From Amoeboaphelidium protococcarum X5 (taxonomy: Eukaryota > Fungi > Aphelidiomycota): DNA of 64,000 nt. The stretch spans positions 620,001-684,000 of the forward strand of contig JALDTO010000251.1 of assembly GCA_023515725.1 (NCBI GenBank). The letters are read 5' to 3'. The translations under genes and the position numbers were made by a program. This document shows positions 24,029-56,877 of the stretch, one piece after another (within the stretch, counting starts at the first letter, position 1; the number at the start of each line of letters is the position of its first letter). The notes beneath the pieces are model-generated. The model saw only the letters and a program-made list of their open reading frames with translations. It ran no database searches and was not told where the DNA came from.

Positions 24029-24714
24029 TTACTGTAGTGATATCAGTGAATGAAGATTTTGAATGATGTTTGTCAAGCTTCTAATATTCTTATTTTTAAA
24101 TTTTACAGACGATGTTGGAGCTGTCTTGAATAGAACATAACGCGCAGGTTCCTTTTAAGTTTTGTTTTACTCTGTTCCATTTTAGAACGGATAGAGTCGC
24201 GTGATGCATCCATTTATCGGACTCTAATGTGAAACTAGTTGATTCATTATTGCCACAGAAAGACGCATAATAATATAGCAGGTTATGATTGTAATAATAA
24301 AAGGCTTGATACGAGAATAGTTCGCTTACTTGAATTACATGTCTGATTTATTACTAGCGAAAGTTCTGGGGACCATTTTACGCTCAAGTTCACACTGTTG
24401 GCATCCTTGTGAATACATGTTTCTAGAAAATCCAAATATCACTGTCGCTTATGCTGAGTGCAATTTCTACCTAGCTAGTAATCAACTAACACAATACATA
24501 TGCTTTTTATTTTCAGTCCCCCATCTAACGTTGTATCTGCGATTACTCTCATTTTTACCACTAATAGATTGGAAAAAGGACGACAATGGTGGGCGACTCC
24601 TGGGAGCGCCACTAACTGATACCCCTGCGGTCGGCGTTTTAACCGTGATCGGCACTTTTAAATTTTTCAACAATTCATCTCATATCAAATTCTTAAATTA
24701 AAGTCAGTATTAAA

Positions 24715-25896
24715 ATGATATTTTAGTTGATTCTTTTCCAAGGACTGGTATACGCGTAGGACCCAATCCTGGTTGCTTATCATGATTCTCTAGTATAGTA
24801 CAATGAGAGTCGCTTTCCAAGTCGTGAAATTGCTATGACTGTGATGCGAGATAATTAACCTATCGATACGCTCTTCTCAAGGCCTTACTATGAACCCTCT
24901 TACTATCCATATCATTCTGATGGTCATTCTGCACCTAGTTACCATACACCGAATTTTGATGAGATTCAATTTAAATATTCAGATTTAAGTCCTAATGTAG
25001 AACGCATGGAGACGGCTGTTTTTTTTGATTAGCCGCCACAGGTAGATTAATCGTTTAGCATTGTATCCTAAACGTAGAATCAAGAAGATGCTAACACTAT
25101 CGCGTAATTTAAACTGAGAGATCCGTTCAATTCAACTGAAAAAGACTCCTATGAGAACGTTATTGATCTTCGTAGATAAATCACGGTATAGATGGACGCG
25201 TTTAATGGCACTTGCGTCAGGAGCGGGCTGAAAGGACGTCTTTGCGAGTTTGTATGTGAGGCATTTCTGTATGGAACGTATGAAAGAGACTCTAATACCT
25301 GTTATGTCTTCTTAAAGTTGCATAGACTGTAAATTATGGTTAAAAAGAATAGCGACGGTCAGTGGGTTGCTGCAGCGGATGATTTTTGGAAGTCGGGTGT
25401 CCCTAAATCATTTGGTGCTGTGAAGCGTCATTTCGAACGTGAGAACTCTCATTCTGACTCTAAACCAGTGAGGATGGTATATGATCACGTCGAAGCTCTT
25501 GCAAAGAAAGAGATGCCTGAGAATTATCCAGCTGTGTATGGTGTTGACCGTAATGATTATCGCGTGAAATTTAGATTTTTAGAGATTCAAGTGTATGACT
25601 CTCAAGACCCTTTAATGTAATTGTCTAAGATGATTCCATACGATGATTTTAAACTTCCTGTGGTTGAGAGCCAAGGAAGATCAGGCAAAAAGGCATTTGA
25701 AGAAACATTGTAGCAGATCAATGCTACATCGAATAAGAAAACTGGCTGGATTATTGGTCTTGCCGTAGTTTGTAGCTGTCTTTTGGTGAGTGTCGTTGGA
25801 TTTGTCATTTGGTACAAACGCAATTTGCTACCCAAGATTTAGTACTAGAAATTGCAATCCTTTATGCTGGGAGAAGTTTTTGAACCTGAAGTTTGA
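24715..25896 (+). CDS. unknown type I membrane protein (393 aa)
   Basis: MIFQLILFQGLVYA signal peptide, ectodomain with several N-x-S/T sites, TM WIIGLAVVCSCLLVSVVGFVIW followed by YKR; open only under TAR=Gln. Confidence 0.75.
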
Positions 25897-38745: not shown

Positions 38746-39204
38746 ATGATTGACGACAAGAAGCTAAAGTAGACGCGTTTATGGACGAAAACATCAACGA
38801 TTGACGACAAGAAGCGCAAATCTCTTTTGAAACGATCTGCAAAGGAAGCGGAAGAGGCTGAGCAGCTGGCAAAAGATCTTGGAATTGAGAGAGTGAGCGG
38901 AGAGGATCAGCTGAAACAGTTGATATAAAGCAAGAACAAGAACAACTTTGACGCGCTAATGGATGGCATTGAAAAGAGATATACCAAAAAGTCTAAAAAG
39001 TGAATACAAATCTATTTAATCATTCTTAAGTTACCATATGATAATCTCTCTCAGTGAGTTAAATTTTCAGCCAGCCTAATTAAAATAATAGATCCACTAA
39101 ACTTCGTGATATTTGTCTCCAGAGAACAGACTAAATACAGACTTGTCATCTCCTGATTTCTTAATACCGTGTGTTTTTGTAATAATGGTCAAGTACTCTT
39201 CATT
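38746..39204 (+). repeat. direct repeat copy B (459 bp), includes an orphan DNAJC9 3' fragment
   Basis: Near-identical to 36505-36963. Confidence 0.95.
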
Positions 39205-40542
39205 CCAGTAATGTTCAATGTATTGAGGTAAATGCTTAGCTTGACCAGATTTCATAAGTGCCAATTCTGTGTTGGACGGATTAACGTACTTGGATATCAT
39301 TTTATACGCCTCCGAATCGCAAGATATCATCTTGATAAACACCTCCTTCCCTCTACCTCGACGTTTTTGGCCGGTCTTTTCATATCTCAAAGCCTTTAAC
39401 ACGAAGCCAAACTCATTTTTACCGACACAGCCAAGAATTTCATAATCAAATCTTTTAGTTGAATTTTACTTTTACTTTGTATCATTAGAATTGAACGTAT
39501 TTAGTGTCGGTTGCTGTTAAGATGACTCCAAGTTCAGAGCCTTTCTGCCATCAAGAATATCAGCCAAATCGCACTCTACTTTACTTGAACCATTACTTAA
39601 TGACGGTCTTTCTAGCTTATTCATGCTTTGTCTTCGGGATTGCAACAGATCTTCTACATTGGTAGCAGGAAGTCGCGCAGCTATTTTAACTTTCTAACTT
39701 TGATGCTCTTAACGTTATTGATCGCGATCTTTTACGGATTAATTAGCGACTTAAATTTATGGGACACTTAATGGAACTGAGGGCCTTTTCTGTATCAATG
39801 AGCTACTAGAAGGCTACTAAGATTATGGCAGAAGTTCGGGTACACTGATCATTGACTTTTGACTGCCCAAATACGGTTACGATTATGATTATCCGGGCTT
39901 CAACGATAATGAGCTACGACCAGACTTATCAATCGCTGCCAGACTCAGAGTTGACTACGTAGGAAACACGCTCACTCTCTGGGGTTTATCGCCACCATAA
40001 CCGCTTCTCCATCCACCGGAAGTGCTGGGTGTTCTCGTTAGATCAGACTCTGCACCTTTACCGCCATTTCCTCGAGGCATCAAATATCCATCAACATCCG
40101 ATGCAACAGACTGGCGAATCTAGTAACTGCTCCAAGATTAACGTTGCGGCACTGGCTAACTCTTTCTTGTGAGAGACGATTTAGCAATTGGAGGATAGGC
40201 GAACGCTTTATCAATATTCAATGCCTGACCCTCTGCATATCCCTGTGGCGTAATCCTTCTCAACGTTGGAGGCAGCTGCGATCCGGTACTTTAAATTCTA
40301 GACGCACTGATCTGAGCGAAGTCTTCAAACGATGGCATAGAATGAATTTTGTCAGAAGCATTTATAGAGCTTTAGTATTTCCTATCACTCTGGAACTCAG
40401 CTGGAAGAGCTGGTCGCTGTTTCATTACAACTTGTGACATCTATTGCTGATGACCATCATAACTCTTTCCCCTTTAAGAGCTATCGTTGATCGTTCCCGG
40501 CAATGGAGGAGGCAGAGGAATATTTTAATTAAAGTAATCCAT
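39067..40542 (-). CDS. disordered S/P/Q-rich protein ending in a protein-kinase N-lobe-like fragment (no C-lobe)
   Basis: 491-aa frame; YEILGCVGKNEFGFVLKA, VFIKMI, E-helix, YLTIITKTHG, then TGA with no HRD/DFG. Confidence 0.65.
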
Positions 40543-40815
40543 ATATATGATTTCTAAATTCAGATCAGTATATGCTGATGCTTATTATTACAAGGTAGTT
40601 TGATCAGAATTAATTAATATTTCAACATCCGATTGTTTTCATGGCAAAGCGAGTGAAACAAATCAATCAGACGTTCGTCGTCATGGCGGCATCCACGAAC
40701 TGTAAACATTGGATGATGATATGTGGGCGACTTATTCAGAGTGTAAGTACTAAGAATATGAATGAAGGCGAATGGAAAGTTGAAATTTTTATGATTGTTT
40801 ATTAAAAACTTACGG

Positions 40816-44940: not shown

Positions 44941-47226
44941 ATGAGAGTCTGGAAGGTGAATTAATTACTAGCTTTGGCTGGGCTTTGTAGCGCGTAATTC
45001 ATCACTGAGCAATGTGGCGAGTAATTGGGAAAGCTGACTGCGGATGCTCCCGAATTACTACAGGCAATGGACAGCTGGGGTAAGCCTGTTGGTATTCTAC
45101 GTGGTGCTTTTACATCTCTAGGTGATTTTAAAGAGTGTGTTCGTCTTGATGGTTCTGCCGGTAATCAGGTGGCATTCAATCAGGTAACAGTCGAAGGTAA
45201 TTTGAAGCTGAACAGTGGGAACACGTCTGCATCGCTACAATCCACTCTGGGCATCTGTGTACCGCAATCTTGTGACAATATGCACGACGTCATTTCTATA
45301 TTTATGCTGGTGGTGGAGAATATTAACGAATTGCTTGAAGGTGGAACTGTGAATGACGCATCCTACGATAAGTATCCATCTTTGGTATTGGCAGCCACTT
45401 AAGCATGGCAAGGATCTATAATGGCATAGAAAGGAAGCTCCATTAAATATTTGGTGGATAAAGTGCACGTATTTAAGCCTATCGAATGGTCCGCTGGTTC
45501 TATTGTTATGGTGTCTCTGTGGGGCTTTTTTGCACTGTTAACAATTGTCAGCACTACCATTGATTATATTAAATAGTATCGCCAGGTGGATAGCGCGTAT
45601 AAGCTTGCTTTTTAGAGTAAATTGATGCAACAGACTGAAGAAGATGATTTGGCTGATTCTATCGGTGGCGGCAACAGTCACACCGTAGATAGTTAAACCT
45701 CAGATGGCGCTGTGCTATTGCCAAAGTCATCGCGTGACACTCTGTTCAACGCTATTGGTAATTAGTACACCCTTAAAGTAAATCCAAAGCCGAATTTTGG
45801 GGTTAAAGTATTGCGAGCTTTCTCACTGTATGAGACTTTGCCATTTTTATTCAATACCGAGACTAAGAGGTTTAAAGAATTGCGCATCCTGAATGTGGTG
45901 AGGGTGCTGTCTATATTCTGGGTTGCATTTGGACACAGTTTGGGAAGTTTTCTGGAGACGGCCACTCTTGATCCTCTTGATTTGATGGAGCTTGCCAAGA
46001 CCCCACCAATGATGGTGCTGTTCAATTCCTTTCTATCTGTGGACTCTTTCTTTTACCTATCTGCATTTCTTGTCACGTATATGTTCGTATCTGATCCTAA
46101 AAGTATGTAAAAGTTCAATTTTTTCAAGTATGTCCTATTTAGATTCCTGAGATTGACTCCTGCTGCAATGATGATCTTATTTACTCACTGGTTCATATTT
46201 CCTCTGGTTGGTGGTGGGAACTCGTTTGGTGGAAGTCCAATGTGGTACGCTAATGTGGAGCGCATTAATACTCAATGTCCAAAGTTTTGGTGGACGCATC
46301 TACTGTACATCAGTAATTTCTATCCACAAATCTTGGCCAACCAGTGCTTTCCCGCATTATGGTACGTCTCTGCTGATATGTAGCTCTATATACTTCTTCC
46401 ATTCTTTTTGGTGCCTATTTTGGCTAAACGAAAGATGGTTAGACGCCTGGGATGGCTATCTATCATTGTTGTTGGTGTAATTGGCAATTTCTTGTACACG
46501 TTCGTTCCATCAATGGTGTATAAAATACCTGCATTACCGACGCCTGTATTTAATTCGGAACACTCTAACAATGAAGTGCACAATGATCTCAATTTTTGGT
46601 AAGAGTATTATTATCAGAAGAGCTATAGTCACTGCGCTGTCATGTTGACTGGCATCTTGGCTGCTTATGCCTGCATTAATCTGCGCAAATTGTTGTCTAA
46701 TTACATTGAACGAAAGTAGATAAGTATCACACAATGGAGATTGTACGCGTCGCTGATTTAACTGCTAGGAGGTTTCTTGATGGTTTTGGTTCTCTACTTG
46801 CCGTACGATTATGTTCGCCATCTTACTCGCTGGTAATCTGCGGCTGCTAATTCATTTTATAATTTCTATTCAAGATGGCTGTGGTCTATTGGATTGTCTC
46901 TGATAATTATGCCATCCATCGTTGCTCCGGTGTTTACGGCTATTGACGGAGATTCTGTGGACAGTTCCAAGTTGTTGTTGATCAGTAAGCTCGCGTCTGC
47001 CAGGATTTGGACTGTGCTGTCAAAGTTGGTATTTCTGGTTTACATGATACATGTGATATACATCAACATCTGGGTGGGTAGTGAGCTGCGGGAACAAAGT
47101 TACTCTTGGCCAGTCGCGGTGAACGGTTTTGGAGGCATAATGTTTTGGAGTTACTTGACTGCTGCGGTTGTATTTCTAATTTTTGAGGCACCAATGGGAA
47201 CAATAGTTAAGTTGTTGACGCGTTGA
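44941..47226 (+). CDS. NRF-6/OAC-type O-acyltransferase (NRF domain plus acyltransferase_3)
   Basis: Signal peptide, MDSWGKP.GILRG...LGDFKEC, GICVPQSC, RVLSIFWVAFGH, SVDSFFYLS, RFLRLTP, WYVSADMQLY, YMIH, FEAP. Confidence 0.88.
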
Positions 47227-47437
47227 AATAGTAAAAAGTTGTAGTGTTTACTCAATTGCTTTATTTTTACGTTGTATACACCATTGTAAAACGAAGTCCG
47301 GACGCTCTGCTACAATTTTCTAACGTTAATCGAATCACGTTAAGATGTGACCCCTGGCGTGATTTTCAAGTCCGACTGCTGATTTCATCTTTTTAATTAC
47401 ATTGTTAGATCAATCAATGTAATACTATTTAGAGAAA

Positions 47438-48244
47438 ATGCTATTATCAATTCTTGTTTTTAGCTTTTTAACGGTATCCGCATTTGCTCTGTAATTGCGT
47501 AAATTTGATTACCACTCAAGGAATTTCGCGTGTTAGGCATCCAATTCACACGCGTAATGGCACATGCGTAATCTGATGTCTGCTAAATCGCTCAGATATC
47601 TAGAGAGTGTTGGTGAAGAAAGCTTATTCTTAATCTAGCAGTTTGGTCCATAATCTGTATATCGCCAAGATTATTTAGAACATATTTATGATGATGCTCC
47701 ATAAGAATTGAACTAGGTGATGGTGGAATCATTATTAAGGCTACATCGCATAATCTAATCCCCCTCTGATATTGATGCCTCCATAATATAACAGTTCACC
47801 TGCCAAGAGTTTGGTATGTCACTGTCTTTAGAGATAAGTAAGGAGATAATTTTGACTTTTAGGAAGGTATCAGAAGAGTTTAGATTGCCTGTCATAACAG
47901 GCAAATTGAACAATAGATCCCTGGATCAGAAATCACACCTACGATCTTTGCATAAGCGACAACATGATGAGTTGAACCGCGAAATCAAGCGCGCTTTCGT
48001 TGGATTAGTCCAAATTTTAATTGGAGTCCATATTGCTAGAACTGAAATGATAGCGGAAATTGCCTCAGAAGGAAGACGTCCTTTTTTTACCCAAGAGCTA
48101 ATTCAAGCAGCGGGACATGTTGCTTCCGGGTATTTTTTGATCTAGTAGGAACCACAATAGGCTTTAATTGTCTTTTCATTGGCCGCGATACTGAGCATAG
48201 TTGTTCACGTTTTGACGACGAGACACGTTCAAGCCATTAGATGA
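47438..48244 (+). CDS. LxKR preproprotein family member 1 (268 aa)
   Basis: Signal MLLSILVFSFLTVSAFA; YDDAP; LHKR; hydrophobic C-terminal helices. Confidence 0.85.
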
Positions 48245-48537
48245 GTTTTGATTAGATAAATACACTTTTCAGTATTTTCATTTGGCCGTATAGCGATTTA
48301 ATGTTTTGCTCTTACAGTGGAGTTTATACTGTTCTATTCTGGTGAGTGTTCAGGATTCAACCTAAATAACTTAGCAGTCTATGTGTGTCTCCTCAGTCGA
48401 CCATGAGAATTTCACGAGTTCACGTTATATCGCGCCCCTTTGTCCCCGCCGTGAAATTCAAAGACCGATACTAGATTTACCCATTGTCTTTATATATATT
48501 GATATAAGATCAATTTATATAATACTATTTAGAGAAA

Positions 48538-49338
48538 ATGCTATTATCATTTGTTGTCTCAAGTTTTTTAACGGTATCCACGTTTGCTATTTAATTGCGT
48601 AAATTCGATCACCACTCAGGAAATATCGCGTGCGGTGCATCTAATTCACACGCCAATCTGCACCTTAATGGTCTGCTGTCTAGGAAATCGCTCAGTTATC
48701 TGGAAAGCATCGGAGAAGAAAGCTAATACTTGATTGATTAGTTTGGCCCTTAGTCGGTGTATCAGTAGTAGTATTTAGAGCACATTTATAAAGATGCTCC
48801 ATAGCAATTGAATACAGTGATAGAGGAGTCATTATTAAAATTGCATCGCCTGCTCAAGGCTTCCTCTGATGTCGATGTATCCGTGATACAAATATTCGCT
48901 TGTCAAGAATTCGGCGTGGCTTTGCCTTTGCATGTAAGCAACCATGTAATTTAGGCATCCATGAAGGAATTCAAGGAACTTAGATTGCCACTCATTAAAG
49001 ATGGCTCTTATGATCGAAAGTAGAAGTCGCGATCACTGTAAAAGCGATAGCATGATGAAAATAGTATGCGTAGATTGCGCGCTATTGTCGGATTTGTCGA
49101 ATTATGGATTGGAGGAGATATGGTTATCGTCGCAACGTCGCTCGCTTAGGCTCGCAGGTAACGACTGGACTCCGCGTTTTTTTCCCAATCGCTAATACAA
49201 GCATTGGGGCACATGTCGGCTGGGGCTTTTATGATCTAGTAGGACACACCAAGTGCCTTAGTTTGCATCATATTAGCCATGATACTGGACAGCATCATAA
49301 AATTGATGCTAATGAGGCACGCCCAAGTCAATAGATGA
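48538..49338 (+). CDS. LxKR preproprotein family member 2 (266 aa)
   Basis: Close paralogue of member 1, including upstream DNA (aatactatttagagaaaATG); YKDAP; LQKR. Confidence 0.85.
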
Positions 49339-49752
49339 AGTATGACTAGATAGATTATTTAATTTTTTGGCGTTACATTGATTTATTCCAATTCGTTGTG
49401 TTGTAAATGCTCGTTGCACCGTTGATTACGTTAACTAAAACGTGGAAAATCACACGCAGTTGAAACGTTACGCGATCTGCGACATGCATTAGATCTATAT
49501 TGTATTTTTTGGCGTAAGATGCTTTTATTATTTTCCAAAAAAAATCACTATCAGACTATTAATAGCTAATCACGACTTTTTACGTAACGATATTGCTAGT
49601 GATTATTATGCCGCACCTATCTCTTTACGATGAAATGGTGTAATTATTGGAGAGATGCATAACCATTGACGAAGAAAGTTGAATCACGACAGCGTTGAAA
49701 GATTAGACAACTGTAAGTTATCTTTTCAAGTAGGTAGCAGTTTTGCTTAAAA

Positions 49753-50370
49753 ATGCACAATTATAATAATAAGTATCCAGGATTGAGCATCAAATTCCTG
49801 GCTGAAACTTACATAAATGCACCCGATAAATTTGATTTCGCGTTGCATTTCTTGTTGTCTTTTATTGCAAAGGGCGGTATTGATCACGTCGATGCTAGCC
49901 TAATCCAAAAACTCTTTTGTTCTGTATTTGGGATAAAAGTATCCAATAAAGATGGTATTATAATCTACGAATAATTTAAAAAATTCTAGACGGAGCTGGG
50001 TAAGAATAGAAAAGAGCAGGATAAAGTTGGGTCGCTCAGGCCCACACTCGTAGCGGACGTATCTCTTTATAAACGAAGTCTATGGGATAATGCTGAAACT
50101 TTACGCGTGTTCTTTGGCTCCTTGGAGATTCTTATTGGGTACTGTTTTTACACAAGCCTGTTAAATTACTATCGTTCTCTGGAATAGTTGTTAGACCCGG
50201 TTCCTGGCATGGTTGGTGCTGGTTTGATGCTCAGTGGCTCAGAGATGATACTTTAAAATAATAAGGTTGCTGGAATAGTTTTTTATTTGACTATGATCTA
50301 TCTGGAGTTCTATTATCGATTCGTTTAGGTTTATGATCGTATCTCTGATCGTGATTTGTACTATTAGTGA
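49753..50370 (+). CDS. LxKR preproprotein family member 3 (5' end degenerate or unresolved)
   Basis: YINAP, DASLIQKLFCSVFG, LYKR, hydrophobic C-terminus; in-frame TGA at 49696 upstream and no intact signal peptide found. Confidence 0.6.
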
Positions 50371-50652
50371 ATTTCATTTAAGTAGTAACTAGACAGACAG
50401 ACACACTATGGATATCATGATGATAGTAGAATTTATGCACCTAAATCTCTCTTTAAGTTATTTTGACACCGTGTTCAGTTAGCGTAGATTCCTGATTTTC
50501 ATACGGAAATGCATATAATAAGGATGCAAATAACGCGTACCTGACAATGTCCCCTTGAAACGATTGGTTGAGCCCCCAGTCATGTGTTGAATCGTTAATC
50601 CTCTATTTTTGGAGACTAAGTCTGAATTATAGAGTTTAATTACGTCTACACT

Positions 50653-51732
50653 ATGTAAAGTATCTATCTCAGTGTTTTTTATAGCTATCTCATATTGTGG
50701 TCTAATATAGTATATCCACACATTTAAAAGCTGTCTTATCGCTCGTAAACTGCTCTGCTATCATCTGGACTGTCTGACTAGGATTCACGTTTGTATCTGT
50801 ATCGCGTTGGCAATGATGCTTTCAATATAGCGAGATCAGATAGCTTCTAAATAAAAGGTGGTAAACTTATGGATTAAAATTACTGGCTTGATGTTTACAA
50901 TGAGGCTCCTTAAGTGCTTAAGTCTGCCATGACGCGTCTAATTTATAGCGTAGAGCAGGCACTAGTCGTCAACAATTAATAGTTTGATGGTGGTATGATT
51001 TAAAAAGTCTTGATGTAATAATACGGTATCAGATAAAGCAGATAGAATATGGACACTTTGGCATCTGACGCGTTAAAAAGCTTTCATCGAGTATTGAATG
51101 GAGATATAGAAGTAAATACAGCTGACGAAGCTTTTAGTGAGTTGGCTCAGCTTCGACACAATCTTGCGAAAAGCAGCCATCCAAAATTGTTAACTAAGAG
51201 AGGTCTAAGCAATTAGTACAGGAGAAAGTTGTTCGATTCTGAAGTTGGCATTGCATTAAGAGCTGCAGATCAAAATAGAGATGATGTGATATCTCAGTTG
51301 TCGCCTAACACTTAAAAATCTATTAAAATTATCTTGGGAGTCCTGTTCATTATGACTGGTGTCGCGCTTGTTATGTTAAGCTTATCAGGATAAGGCTTGT
51401 CTCCCAGATAAAGGATTAGAAAGGTTTTCACATTGCTTATTGCAGTGTGTGGTGCATTCAGTGCGGGAATACTCTTACTGACATCAGGTCCAGTGAAAAT
51501 TGGTCTTATAATTATTGCTAGTTTTTCTGTGGTTGCGTTTTTAGTATGGTATATTTGTGTCAATCAGTTCCCTTCGCCGGAAGATGATAGTGATTCCGAA
51601 TCATCAGATCACGATTCGGAGTTGAACGAGTAGTCTGCGATAGAGTTGGCTGCAATGCACTTGGAGTAAATTCGTGCGGATTAAGCATAGAACCACATTG
51701 ATGTACTCTCTGGAACTACGGCTAGACATTGA
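50653..51732 (+). CDS. LxKR preproprotein family member 4 (359 aa)
   Basis: N-terminal hydrophobic MQSIYLSVFYSYLILWSNIVYP; YNEAP; LTKR; 3 TMs; acidic tail. Confidence 0.8.
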
Positions 51733-52188
51733 TAGCTTTGTTTCATGATTTTGCATTTAAATAAATATGCTAAATTAAACTTTATTTTTATAAATACTGT
51801 AATGCTATGGCCATTAAGAAATCAACTTTCATTAAATTACTGTGGACTTGTGCTTTGGCGAACAATACACGACTTCACCATGCGAATCCTTACTTAAACC
51901 AAGTCGTGTCTGACCAACACTACTTCAAAGAAGCTGGGGCCACACACATTTAATCGGAAGGATAAATCCATATTATTCTCAAGATGTCCCGTTTGAAGAA
52001 CCACTAATCTCAACTTTGATTAGTGCGGTTTTTCTAGTCATTCACACACGTGAGACTTTGGGCATCTCGAGATTGGAAGTCTCGTGCTTCAAGCTATCCA
52101 CGGCTTTCTCTGATCAGGCAAATGGCACTTTGGTCTTCAAATATTATCACTGATAGTAGAAGTATATATACGGTTTCATTCAAAGGAC

Positions 52189-53286
52189 ATGGCAAACTAC
52201 TGGCTTGGTATCATCTTTAGCTATTTGATCATTTGGTCCAATCTGGTCTATCCTCAGATTTAATCAGGAGCATTCTGCTCCTAAAAGGCGATTGTAAAGT
52301 CTGGTCTATCTGATGGACAATCTTTATAATTTTTGAAAAGCCTTGGATCGGATGTAATGCGTAAAGTGATGGAATCTAATGCTGGCTAGGATAGTATAAT
52401 GAATCCATCCTTTTGGGTGGAGGTATACGATAGCGCGCCTTCTGTACTGCAAAACTCCTTCTCCCGCCTAGTGTAAGATGTCTCTTTAATACGACCAAGT
52501 AAAGATAGATTTAATGGCGCATTTATTAAGGAAATACTTGGCCAGGAGTTTAGTTATGCGTTAGATGAATTCGATCTGGATTAAATGTCGTAACTGGCAC
52601 TGGACAGTTATCATCGAGCTCAACTTGATTAGAATCGTTAATCTTTATACGATGCATTTGCTCAATTAAGCAAGCTGCAATCTACATAATTTATCCCCAA
52701 TAACCGTCGGCCTTAGTTGTGGAAACGTGGGTTTGGAAATAGTAAATTTAATGCTCCATAAGGTTTACGCGGTCGTATGGCGATGGAGATTTTCCACAAT
52801 GATTACTCCAATTATAGTCCTAACCCAGTACTAAACTCAGTACTTTAGAATTTGCCATACATTGTAGGAGCTGCATTTATCTTGATTGGAATCGGGTTAT
52901 CGGTTATAAGTTTTGCTTACAGTCCGGTGTATAGCCGTTAATTTAGGAATGTCATTGCTTGTCTGACGACGGCGGCTGGTTTTTTTGCTAGTGCAATCTC
53001 TTTATTCACTGGCATTGGTTTTATATTAAGTATGATAATACTGGGGTCTTTCCTAACTCTTGCAGGCATAATGTATGTTGCTATTACAAAGTGCGAGACA
53101 TTGGTATAACGAGGCATTAATATTGTTGTTACTCGTTTCCCATTGGAGATTGATCAATCTTTGCCTCAAGTAGAAATGCAATAGTAGTAGTCGTAGTAGT
53201 AGTAATAGCAGTAGAGACATACATAACTCTCAGTGGTAAATGAAGCTGCTTAAGACGCGTAAGAATTGCAGTAGAGTTAGTAGTGA
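52189..53286 (+). CDS. LxKR preproprotein family member 5 (365 aa)
   Basis: MANYWLGIIFSYLIIWSNLVYP (paralogous to member 4); YDSAP; LWKR; 3 TMs; polyQ tail. Confidence 0.8.
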
Positions 53287-53580
53287 ACTCTAGTAATTGA
53301 TAGGTTGAGGTTTGCACTGATAGCTAGCAGCGTATTGTTCATAAGCTGCTAGTAACTTATACGGTATGATGATGATCCTTTGAACGAACATTAATTTTAT
53401 TAAGAGTACTATTAGCAATGGCGTCTGCCACTTTGTCAAGTTGACATTATAATTCCAAGTTTTGATTTTAAGCTCACGTAGACTTTTATGAGTACATGTC
53501 ATTAACTCGTAAAAAGGCTTCTAGTAGCATCCTTAAGTTGATAATATATTCCACAAAACTAAAATCTTATATTCAGTATA

Positions 53581-54309
53581 TCACAATTCTCCGTACCACA
53601 ATGGCTCCCGTATTTTCACTCTGTCTTCCTCCATGAACATGTCATTGTCATACTATTAAATCAGCGACTTGATTCGCTCGTCTGGATACATACCAAGCCG
53701 CTGAGCTCTACTCCAGCGCTCCTTACGCGACAATCCAACGTTAGGGCCATACGTGTAATCTAAATCAAACTTTCTCAAAATCTATAAAGCATCCTACAAC
53801 TCTTTTTAAGGAATTCTAATGGCTTTCAACGGGGATCGCTTAGCCTTGACTGGAGTAGATGGCGCCACCAACAGTGTAGAAGCAGACTTATTATCAGGTG
53901 TTCTCAGGCGAGATCTATTCACAGCGGCAATTGATGGAGATTAAATATGTAGCGTGTCGTCACTGTAATCAGACTCAATAACATCATTCTAAGTATCGCT
54001 TTGCTTATGGTTGTTATAATCAGTAGAAACAGACGATTGCGGGCGTTTAACAGAAGGAGGTGGAGTCTAAACTAGGCTACTGCTCAGCAGCGAATCTTGG
54101 CCATCAGAATTCACAGCAGGGACATCAAAATTATCCAAACTCTTCAGCGACTACTTTTACTTTTTCCTACCATTAGCCAGCAGTTTACCGCCAGATTTTG
54201 AAGGAGGTGTGAACAAATGCTCTCTTCCCACATCACCATCATCGTCCCCACCGACTCTCTTCTTCTTCTTCATTTTTGGCGTTTATGGAGTACTTCGCTT
54301 AGGCGGCAT
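53581..54309 (-). CDS. POLD4: DNA polymerase delta subunit 4 (p12/Cdm1) with long disordered N-terminus
   Basis: LRKFDLDYTYGPNVGLSRKERWSRAQRLG...PLWY. Confidence 0.82.
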
Positions 54310-55107: not shown

Positions 55108-56877
55108 ATGCCATTTCTTAACGTAATCTATGGTGGAATGTCTGCCGAAATTAAAACTGATGGCATTGAACGAATTGGCGAATTGCGCAGAGCTATTAAA
55201 GAGGAGTACAATAGAGCCCTGGCAGAGATCGATGCTCCTAGATTGCAGCTCTACAACTCCTCTACCAATGATCGAATTGCCACGATGGCTGATTTTCGAG
55301 CACTCCCTAATGCATTCTATGTTGAAGGTGGACCGTGCATTGAAATACGCACATCACCGCCTCCGTCGAAGTAGCCGTCGCTGGTTAATATTGTTCCATT
55401 TCCCCCAAATAGTGGTGCTGTTCATGAAGGCCTTCCTGACGCTGCTCAAAAGCCGGTAATAGATCGCGCTGAACTCGTGAAGAAGATTTCTGACATTATG
55501 GAGAGGCAGATGTCGTTGCTCATTACATCGCCATCGTTCACTGGGAAAACCGCACTAGCTAATTTAATGTATAATCACTGGTAGCGAAGTGGGAAGAATG
55601 TCCATTTTATCTCGTTTGCGAATTATACGCCCGAAATGGATATTGATGAATTTTTCTCTTTGTTCTTAGGGTAGAGCGCTTTGCGTATTATGGCGACTGG
55701 CGGTATTCTTATTATGGACGAAACGCAAAACATTTACAGTCATCCTACCTTTTGGAGTAATCTGAAGAGTGGAGCTTAAGGCTGCAGAGTTCTGGCGTTT
55801 GGTGTTTTTGGTTTATCCACTCTTGGATTTGATCGGTCTCCTTTGCAGTTTCAACTAAAGTGGTATTATGATGATGTCAAATTTTCGGATCAAGAGTGTA
55901 TGGAACTTATCGATAAATTCAAGCAATATAAACCGATTGCTCGCGAAATCTTGGTTCCTGAGGTTATTGGTGATCTTTTAAACAAATTCCTCAATTATCA
56001 CCCTGGTTTAGTTTATCTGGCGTTGCATACTATCTGTTATGAGTTTACACGTACACCATACTGTGCTAAAGAAGTTAAAGATATTCGATTGCTCATGATG
56101 AAAGGAAAACTTCTATCTTAACTTTACACTGCGCGATGTTTTGCCGTGGACTACGATAAGATTAAGCAGATGCTGGGCCGTGATACGGATAAAGATATGA
56201 ACGCGCTGATTCACTACGATTCTATTCCGCTGGATGATAATAATCTTGATTTGCATCGCTATGGAATTTGTATAGCAGATCGTAGTGAAGGAACTTTGAA
56301 ATTCGCAAGTGAAATAATGCGGTTCTTCTATCGAGATTTATACTACAAAGCTACATATGGAGTTTCTGGACGTTATGTGATTACGAACTGGACTGGTGTA
56401 TCTGCGCACACCTTGCTAAAGCGTATTCTCGAGTTATTTAATCCTCGAGTATTTTTAAATACTCAAGCTATAGGTAGAGATGGTCGAATCTATGAGCGTC
56501 TTTTTTAAGATGAGTTTTATAGGTGCTGCTATCTGTTGGCACCATCAAAGTGTCATCCTGATGTCGGGGCGAAGTATAGCTCAACAGGATTCATCGATTT
56601 TTATATTGATGACGAACTTTAATGGGGGTTCGAATTGCTTCGCAATGGGAACAGGCTGAGAGAACACATGGATAGATTTGATCCTACGATCGGTAGATAC
56701 AAAGATATTCCTTTGAACGATTATGCTGTTGTGGACTTTTACGAAGTTTTTGAAAGTGGTGACGAATTCGTCAACGACAAGTACTTTAAGGTTGTATTCT
56801 CGAGTGACTTCAGCTCAGTGGAACTATCTCACAATGGTTAAATTGAACATATCGTTTGCGGCTAACCCCAATAATGA
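55108..56877 (+). CDS. Crinkler(CRN)-type effector: Ubl header, P-loop NTPase, PD-(D/E)xK-type REase (589 aa)
   Basis: IGELRRAIKEE..LAEIDAPRLQLY header; SPSFTGKT Walker A; LIMDETQ Walker B; YERLFQDEFYR..PDVG..GFIDFYI..WGFELLRNG..EH..RF..Y.VVDF. Confidence 0.85.

Follow-up and report, generated by a model that had tools for sequence, protein, structure and literature searches.

Tandem genes for candidate kexin-processed membrane proproteins in the aphelid Amoeboaphelidium protococcarum

Aphelids, the closest relatives (sister group) of fungi, crash algal mass cultures. Membrane proproteins that are activated by convertases include class I viral fusogens, ENaC and cadherins. Kex2-processed pro-domain (K2PP) effectors are represented by SnTox3, ToxA and SIX1/4/6 (PMC8528282; bioRxiv 10.1101/2020.05.27.120113). 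Candida albicans Ece1, a precursor of 271 aa with seven KR sites, gives rise to many peptides, among them the 31-residue candidalysin (PMC5784256). Furthermore, the killer toxins K1, K2 and SMKT are made from a Kex2-processed precursor in which a predicted transmembrane helix is buried (PMC13211469). Kex2-cleaved fungal integral membrane proteins were not found in open-licence main texts, and a literature search on aphelid and kexin returned no relevant paper.

The window, which is the whole 64,000-nucleotide stretch of Amoeboaphelidium protococcarum X5 analysed here, holds five co-oriented paralogue frames on the + strand at 47438..53286. They are readable only under table 6 (TAA/TAG=Gln) and end on TGA, and the standard code places 8-30 internal stops in each. 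In the tandem array, four genes are intact and one copy is broken:

47438..48244, + strand: member 1, 268 aa, with a signal-peptide-like start, a helical domain predicted to be lumenal, LHKR and a 94-aa hydrophobic module
47948..47959, + strand: LxKR of member 1 (LHKR); helix 1 lies between further dibasic sites whose last residues are 185 and 214
48538..49338, + strand: member 2, 266 aa, 52% identity to member 1
49036..49047, + strand: LxKR of member 2 (LQKR); further dibasic sites have 179 and 207 as their last residues
49590..49730, + strand: member 3, broken 5' remnant, 53% identity to P0019 residues 2-48
49741..50370, + strand: member 3, open 3' part, 72% identity to P0019 residues 53-264, with LYKR at 50065-50076
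50653..51732, + strand: member 4, 359 aa, with an N-terminal hydrophobic segment, a predicted lumenal domain, LTKR at 51190-51201 and a linker
51322-51561: member 4, three predicted transmembrane helices, which an acidic tail follows
52189..53286, + strand: member 5, 365 aa, with an N-terminal hydrophobic segment, a predicted lumenal domain, LWKR at 52717-52728 and a linker
52852-53085: member 5, three predicted transmembrane helices, which a poly-Gln tail follows

An earlier note on this DNA had described five whole, intronless, co-oriented genes that need TAR=Gln. Orientation and code were borne out, and the contigs of four runs aligned to 47150-51000 showed no intron-like joint; members 1, 2, 4 and 5 are intact, but member 3 is broken here. 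Its intact orthologue P0019 (264 aa), from a public Amoeboaphelidium protococcarum record, maps onto two different frames, 49590-49730 (53%) and 49741-50367 (72%). The remnant, found with P0019 as query, has an in-frame TGA at 49680 and no ATG at the position matching the P0019 start, and the first ATG of the 3' part is at 49753, with no in-frame signal peptide. Splicing was dropped as the cause of the break, the P0019 homology being colinear across two frames, and an assembly slip is unlikely because one DNA contig is identical to 47085-49908 throughout. Run X9, whose contigs reach parts of all five genes, is likely RNA, since its loose end of 25 T at 53549 is what a polyadenylated transcript of the neighbouring gene would leave. 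In runs X9-X12 mostly gene-sized pieces are covered and 49472-49729 is uncovered; this gap is a weak hint only and was given no weight in judging member 3. No sixth paralogue was found in the window by tblastn and a profile search, the same profile having also overlooked the member 3 remnant, and the five genes contain no internal repeat family. Member 1 has a second in-frame ATG at 47417. The DNA of 47407-47706 (member 1) and that of 48507-48806 (member 2) are 77% identical.

The pro-regions are homologous, as eight of the ten member pairs outscore all 300 shuffles (z 5.5-86); the remaining two involve the truncated member 3, and with P0019 in its place all four pairs outscore every shuffle. 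For the post-KR parts alone, some shuffles reached five of the ten pairs, and homology between subfamilies is weak there. An alignment of nine sequences, representing four deep lineages at 20-30% identity, has 15 invariant columns, nine of them in the N-domain and three in LxKR. The YxxAP motif reported earlier holds for its AP, which is fixed, but not for its Tyr, which is absent from P0019 and P0015. Among the sequences searched, relatives were detected only in Amoeboaphelidium protococcarum, an aphelid parasite that feeds on algae, and only at this locus.

Neither whole proteins nor halves matched Pfam above the cut-off, the claudin/SUR7, tetraspanin and MS4A/CD20 families included; helix 1, which we take to resemble MS4A, gave no MS4A match in the profile search. 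NCBIfam likewise gave no match above cut-off, and the PDB sequence search gave 0 matches at E 10. Sub-threshold profile matches to Formin_GBD_N (E 0.004-0.03) and PspC transmembrane (E 0.002) were set aside. In the protein atlas there was a single lead of 0.76 with low recognition, and none for the N-domain. Metagenome and viral contig scans gave no relative, although their standard-code patterns could overlook TAR=Gln genes, and six accession or locus names were not mentioned in open-licence main texts. Two structure models, both low-confidence (pLDDT 47 and 52), are all-helical; there are 2-3 Cys per protein, none invariant. Foldseek against PDB and viral models returned nothing at E 0.001, and its rows for the alpha-pore toxins AhlB and SmhB (E near 1, rmsd 38 A) are meaningless. 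The best VIA-align matches, Z 7.6 (rmsd 4.0, 86 aligned) and Z 9.9 (rmsd 2.5, 93 aligned), pair the C-terminal helices with generic helical bundles, and the N-domain alone was barely covered. The earlier description of the paralogues as an undescribed family agrees with this, as no housekeeping family was matched in Pfam, NCBIfam, PDB or fold searches.

LHKR, LQKR, LYKR, LTKR and LWKR were recovered at the positions first reported for them (47948, 49036, 50065, 51190 and 52717). Each of the five members has a single LxKR, 86-101 residues C-terminal of YxxAP, and the motif is present in 19 of 19 family records (near-identical alleles and one fragment counted), with eight different residues at x and constant L, K and R. 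Any LxKR occurs in only 4-9% of shuffled family proteins, and the other long frames of the window, 12,885 aa in all, contain six. There are two KR in member 1 and one in each of members 2-5, and dibasic sites number 1-3 per protein. LxKR forms one alignment column in all three accurate MAFFT modes; its positional homology across subfamilies is nevertheless method-dependent, because four of six default alignments (A1, A2, A6, A7) failed to align it and two (A3, A5) aligned it, with A4, which contained a fused model, outside this count. With P4 Leu, P2 Lys, P1 Arg and an unconstrained P3, the site agrees with the published kexin pattern (PMC8528282). However, the yeast matrix gives Leu at P4 only 0.09 and favours an acidic P1' (PMC2515848 Table 1); all five sites score low on it, their P1' residues being Gln, Ser or Gly, with no acidic ones. 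In the member 1 model, LxKR lies in a low-confidence stretch (residues 141-200, pLDDT 31-49) that follows a helical domain (residues 41-140, pLDDT 55-78). The site is predicted to be lumenal and not cytosolic, as expected of the kexin-type site first proposed.

Starting from the array, the homology, the conserved LxKR and the hydrophobic helices, our leading explanation, tentative and a little short of an even chance, is that these are aphelid-specific membrane proproteins, likely cut by Golgi kexin at LxKR so that a cap is released from a three-helix module anchored in the parasite. The same protease-type site is kept before a hydrophobic module, so the members would likely be cut in the Golgi and, instead of leaving the cell as toxins, likely be anchored in the parasite's own membrane. 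The N-terminal segment would take the protein into the secretory pathway and place the cap (~150 residues) and KR in the lumen. Helix 1 would run out-to-in and lead into a basic loop in the cytosol; helix 2 would return to the outside and helix 3 re-enter, leaving the tail cytosolic. This predicted topology is clear for members 4-5, and in members 1-3 the last helix would be the main anchor. Golgi kexin would then separate the folded cap from the module, and cap removal may activate the module. The module would thus do no harm in the ER and would act at the cell surface, where its likeliest role is that of an oligomeric channel, or of a unit for adhesion or membrane remodelling, during invasion of, or feeding on, the alga. 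We infer the host-interface role solely from how the parasite lives and from copy turnover.

Of the signal-peptide-like starts claimed for four members, those of members 1-2 are clear by hydropathy and by eye, with conventional endings, but those of members 4-5 are atypical and lack a clear signal-peptidase site by eye. Similarly, the three hydrophobic helices claimed after KR are present in post-KR parts of 94, 96, 97, 176 and 185 aa (members 1-5), but fall into two classes, strong in members 4-5 and marginal in members 1-3. Membrane insertion free energies are approximate estimates, referred to the window's own membrane proteins and to soluble controls. The helices of member 4 (-1.3, -1.4 and -2.3 kcal/mol) and member 5 (-1.2, +1.2 and -2.1 kcal/mol) stand beside -1.3 and -2.9 kcal/mol for the reference CDC50, and five of six soluble controls have no segment under +2.5 kcal/mol. 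The loop after helix 1 carries +4 and +2 charges in members 4-5 and the following loop at most +1. Three transmembrane-scoring helices, a first loop that is basic and a tail of low complexity make it likely that members 4-5 are integral to the parasite's membrane. Their helices score like those of the window's membrane proteins, so insertion by the translocon would probably fix them in the parasite membrane, and hydropathy speaks against a soluble mature part. The G-x6-G of helix 1, invariant across the nine-sequence alignment, suggests helix packing and a role beyond that of a plain anchor.

Members 1-2 fit a three-pass topology poorly, because helix 1 is at +1.6 and helix 2 above +3.5 kcal/mol. 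A secreted membrane-active peptide is possible for members 1-3, since their helices 1-2 are marginal for insertion (they contain Gln, Glu or His) and members 1-2 have extra dibasic sites. The earlier note had proposed for the whole family a soluble pro-domain that shields a secreted pore-forming payload; this is possible for members 1-3 but conflicts with members 4-5, in which, with a homologous layout, three strong transmembrane helices are combined with a long tail of low complexity. As a general account, secreted protoxins in which a cap shields the module until kexin frees a pore former against the alga or competitors are unlikely, and most plausible for members 1-3. The dibasic sites around helix 1 could free peptides of 28-29 residues, in members 1-2 only, compared with 31 for candidalysin (PMC5784256), and killer toxin precursors also bury a predicted transmembrane helix (PMC13211469). 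However, the downstream RR of member 1 is followed by Pro, that site is absent from the divergent homologue P0014, and a second dibasic site is missing from member 3. In intact copies, the final helix of members 1-3 still comes out at about 0 to -1 kcal/mol, and the helices, including that of the possible 28-29-residue peptide, are not strongly amphipathic because their hydrophobic moments are low (0.03-0.30). Divergence speaks partly for a payload: identity between members 1 and 2 is 41% after KR and 60% in the cap (p 0.009). The claim of a diverging payload behind a conserved pro-domain holds in the member 1/2 clade, to which the only two of seven comparisons with p<0.05 belong, but a third is borderline (p 0.051) and the other four show no difference; dN/dS, roughly estimated, ranges from 0.18 to 0.77 and so never exceeds 1. 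We also think it improbable that the family is an aphelid-own kexin-activated membrane weapon, its Gly-packed three-helix module inert under the folded cap until the Golgi and then oligomerising to a pore or fusogen for breaching algal membranes at invasion, with members 1-3 secretable, members 1-2 releasing a candidalysin-sized peptide and members 4-5 ancestral and anchored.

The N-domain itself might be the product, a soluble effector or signal shed by kexin, with the helices only for sorting and anchoring. It is predicted folded, not disordered as typical fungal pro-domains are, holds most of the invariant columns and is the better-conserved half in the member 1/2 clade; however, one helix would suffice as an anchor, yet three with invariant glycines are kept over four deep lineages, and no fold match suggests a ligand or enzyme function, which leaves this reading doubtful. 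Least probable of all is an uncleaved lineage-specific membrane protein with a signal anchor, 1+3 transmembrane helices, a large outer loop and an LxKR that is structural or rarely cut, which would suit the N-termini of members 4-5, the frequency of KR by chance (36-53% of shuffled proteins) and the fact that good-looking kexin sites can remain uncut (PMC2515848), but not the conventional signal-peptide endings of members 1-2 or an exact L-x-K-R with free x that persists where length and sequence otherwise vary.

Four predicted neo-N-termini follow from the kexin-cleavage reading, QHDE, GLSN, GFGN and, where member 3 is intact in a strain, SLWD. If the proteins are cut and active at the host interface, aphelids would have convertase-activated membrane modules, a target for culture protection; if this is merely a private surface family, it would be one among many orphan expansions in parasites. 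In one aphelid infection study, candidate effectors were chosen by likeness to database entries (PMC8657485), a selection that would overlook a family like this one.

Like K2PP effectors, the family comes from a parasite, is lineage-restricted and combines a signal peptide (clear in members 1-2 only), an N-terminal pro-region and one LxxR/LxKR site, so that the K2PP combination of signal peptide and LxxR/KR/RR site is seen. In K2PP effectors a soluble mature part follows a pro-domain that is mostly disordered, whereas here the N-domain of ~150 aa is predicted helical and precedes a mature part of hydrophobic or multi-pass character. Under the published K2PP rule (pro-region at least two-thirds disorder-promoting, mature part more than half of the secreted protein), none of the four intact members passes, member 5 narrowly missing (disorder share 0.58-0.66; mature share 0.37, 0.39, 0.52 and 0.54). 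Members 1-3 resemble Ece1 in precursor length (264-268 against 271 aa), and members 1-2 also in a hydrophobic stretch between dibasic sites. Unlike Ece1, the family has one or two KR sites and not many KR-bounded peptides or repeats, a predicted folded N-domain and C-terminal transmembrane helices, and no search found a sequence relationship to Ece1/candidalysin. Killer toxins share the hydrophobic helix within a Kex2-type precursor; K1, K2 and SMKT are multi-domain, their single central helix lying in a beta-sheet cradle and their alpha and beta chains joined by disulfides, whereas the family is Cys-poor and, in low-confidence models, all-helical, with three helices on the C-terminal side and a single conserved site, a difference that would also count against the protoxins considered above. 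The sequence and fold searches gave no match that would tie the family to convertase-activated proteins such as class I viral fusogens, ENaC and cadherins; it differs from them in a hydrophobic helix that starts 11-45 residues past the site and in having no large ectodomain behind it, and resembles them in a predicted convertase site in the lumen, where cleavage would activate the part anchored in the membrane.

In the earlier note this locus was read as five co-oriented frames that are whole only when TAA and TAG encode glutamine (table 6), and this is borne out: the standard code breaks each frame 8-30 times. The LxKR sites, conserved and of kexin type, were also located correctly, with exactly one per protein. 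The table 6 code is supported because neighbouring genes match Pfam strongly under it (including septin, CDC50, eIF3j and PTEN; a clear family in 11 of the 14 neighbours scanned) and because, when members 1 and 2 are compared, a TAR codon lies opposite CAR in four places.

Members of the array and other features of the window
47438-48244, plus strand, member 1, 268 aa, table 6 frame
48538-49338, plus strand, member 2, 266 aa, table 6 frame
49699-50370, plus strand, member 3 open frame, table 6
50653-51732, plus strand, member 4, 359 aa, table 6 frame
52189-53286, plus strand, member 5, 365 aa, table 6 frame
44941-47226, plus strand, NRF + Acyl_transf_3 membrane acyltransferase on the same strand, ending ~210 bases before member 1
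53581-54309, minus strand, DNA polymerase delta subunit 4 gene, bounding the array downstream
24649-25896, plus strand, long frame without Pfam match, resembling a single-pass surface protein
39067-40638, minus strand, long frame without Pfam match
55108-56877, plus strand, candidate protein of CRN type, 1.8 kb away from the array, with an N-terminal domain resembling Crinkler (PF20147, E 6.8e-4; 20.8 bits, below the 24.6 cut-off), P-loop NTPase stretch and, by eye, a nuclease-like C-terminus

The claim of five readable genes stands for four, which are intact, and fails for member 3, which is a broken allele in the window. Its intact orthologue, the public 264-aa protein P0019 (signal-like start, S-x-x-Y-L-x-x-V-G motif and LHKR), maps there in two frames, 49590-49730 (53%, TGA at 49680) and 49741-50367 (72%); one DNA contig is identical to the window over 47085-49908, two further runs span the region gap-free, and a second public record, P0015, starts at the same internal Met. 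Over 48538-50370, three public gene models (P0013, P0014 and P0016) have member 2 truncated or joined to member 3; they look like prediction artefacts because none of the contigs matching this stretch has such a joint.

Identity is 52% between members 1 and 2, 30% between members 4 and 5, and about 20-30% across groups. Pro-regions, the parts before KR, score above all 300 shuffles in eight of ten member pairs, and post-KR parts in five of ten. A profile built without member 3 recovers it (E 8.8e-6) but no sixth copy anywhere in the window. A 16-row tree, for which P0014 was trimmed to its N-part and fragment P0011 was omitted together with the fused models P0013 and P0016, resolves four deep lineages with good support (1+2, 3, 4 and 5), whose stems measure 0.85-1.8 changes per column.

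The family is real and apparently undescribed; so far it is confined to a single aphelid species, and its kexin-type site is well conserved. A profile search of 1.84 billion representatives, whose E-values could miss weak paralogues elsewhere, returned six matches, each of them a member of this locus or a close copy. Word-index searches and cluster look-ups gave further copies; every named one is from Amoeboaphelidium protococcarum, and their locus numbers run consecutively on three public contigs, which hold five numbered genes, four (members 1, 3, 4 and 5) and three models. A diverged-haplotype DNA contig from run X1 skips 47226-48593, carrying 708 other letters there, and lacks member 1, so that this haplotype has a single member 1/2-type gene; copy number therefore varies among haplotypes. 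At 52279, contigs from X1, X5 and X9 are longer by nine bases and P0012, P0017 and P0018 by three residues, so member 5 as it stands in the window is either a shortened allele or a variant of the assembly. Searches of open-licence literature for the family's accession names and for aphelid with kexin found no description, nor do the available portions of PMC6339444, PMC8657485 and PMC11767097 mention such a family.

The members are likely transcribed. Run X9 is probably RNA because one contig ends in a loose 25-T stretch at 53549, just beyond the minus-strand DNA polymerase delta subunit 4 gene, whose likely 3' end it marks; X9 contigs cover 47465-48215, 48459-49274, 49888-50605, 50711-51779 and 51815-53401. 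Three runs of the same study span parts of members 1-4, without joints.

LxKR occurs in 18 of 18 records plus P0019, although many are near-identical alleles and the independent cases therefore number four. Its x is H, Q, Y, T, S, W, R or F, and it lies 86-101 residues beyond the AP motif. Accurate MAFFT modes on intact sequences place it in one column in three of three alignments, as 3 of 15 invariant columns; default alignments do so in two of six. When a member is shuffled, an LxKR turns up somewhere in 4-9% of cases.

The most likely, if tentative, reading is a kexin-processed membrane proprotein, in which we infer everything beyond the sequence anatomy. A folded lumenal cap would be cut by kexin from a three-helix module, which would stay in the parasite's membrane and become active at the surface. 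In a translocon free-energy model (checked against the window's own proteins), helices 1-3 score -1.3, -1.4 and -2.3 kcal/mol in member 4 and -1.2, +1.2 and -2.1 in member 5; the window's membrane protein CDC50 gives -1.3 and -2.9, and of six soluble controls five have nothing under +2.5. In members 4 and 5 helix 1 leads into a basic loop (+4, +2), the second loop is short, and the protein ends in an acidic or poly-Gln tail; together these features fit a predicted three-pass protein whose cap and KR face the lumen. The charge argument is blurred by basic residues that in members 1, 2 and 4 also lie ahead of helix 1. AlphaFold2 models on shallow alignments are almost all helix (pLDDT 47 for member 4 and 52 for member 1; 55-78 over residues 41-140 of member 1, low around KR), and fold searches with them gave no meaningful match.

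The toxin proposed earlier is possible, yet the membrane proprotein is preferred. A secreted pore-former is rather unlikely overall and suits members 1-3 best: helices score +1.6, above +3.5 and about 0 in members 1-2 and +0.5, +2.1 and -1.0 in intact member 3, and dibasic sites 28-29 residues apart flank helix 1 in members 1-2. In member 1 a Pro comes directly after the downstream site, P0014, a divergent homologue in that clade, lacks this site altogether, and helical moments of the post-KR helices are low. Faster divergence of the payload, also claimed, holds for members 1/2 (60% before KR vs 41% after, p 0.009) and member 2/P0014 (63% vs 47%, p 0.04), is borderline for member 5/P0018 (84% vs 73%, p 0.051) and fails in four other pairs, where identity is equal. 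Selection is purifying to relaxed on three rough dN/dS estimates from contig differences and public proteins (0.31, 0.77 and 0.18, none above 1), which assume that each contig encodes its paired protein; where this was checked, in member 5, 14 of the 16 codons listed agreed. That the shed N-domain is the product is as improbable as the secreted pore-former. An uncut membrane protein is less probable still. The sites have the Kex2 pattern of P1 Arg, P2 Lys, free P3 and P4 Leu (available text of PMC8528282), although the accessible part of PMC2515848 rates P4 Leu at 0.09, favours acidic P1' residues, which the family sites lack, and reports that some good sites stay uncut, all of which weighs against the kexin reading.

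Ece1 has seven KR sites (PMC5784256), which this family lacks, and K1-type toxins have a beta-sheet cradle (PMC13211469), of which the low-confidence, almost all-helical models show no sign. The published rule for K2PP effectors, fungal effectors with a Kex2-processed pro-domain, is failed (bioRxiv 10.1101/2020.05.27.120113) by four of four intact members; the likeness to them is the one LxKR after an N-terminal domain.
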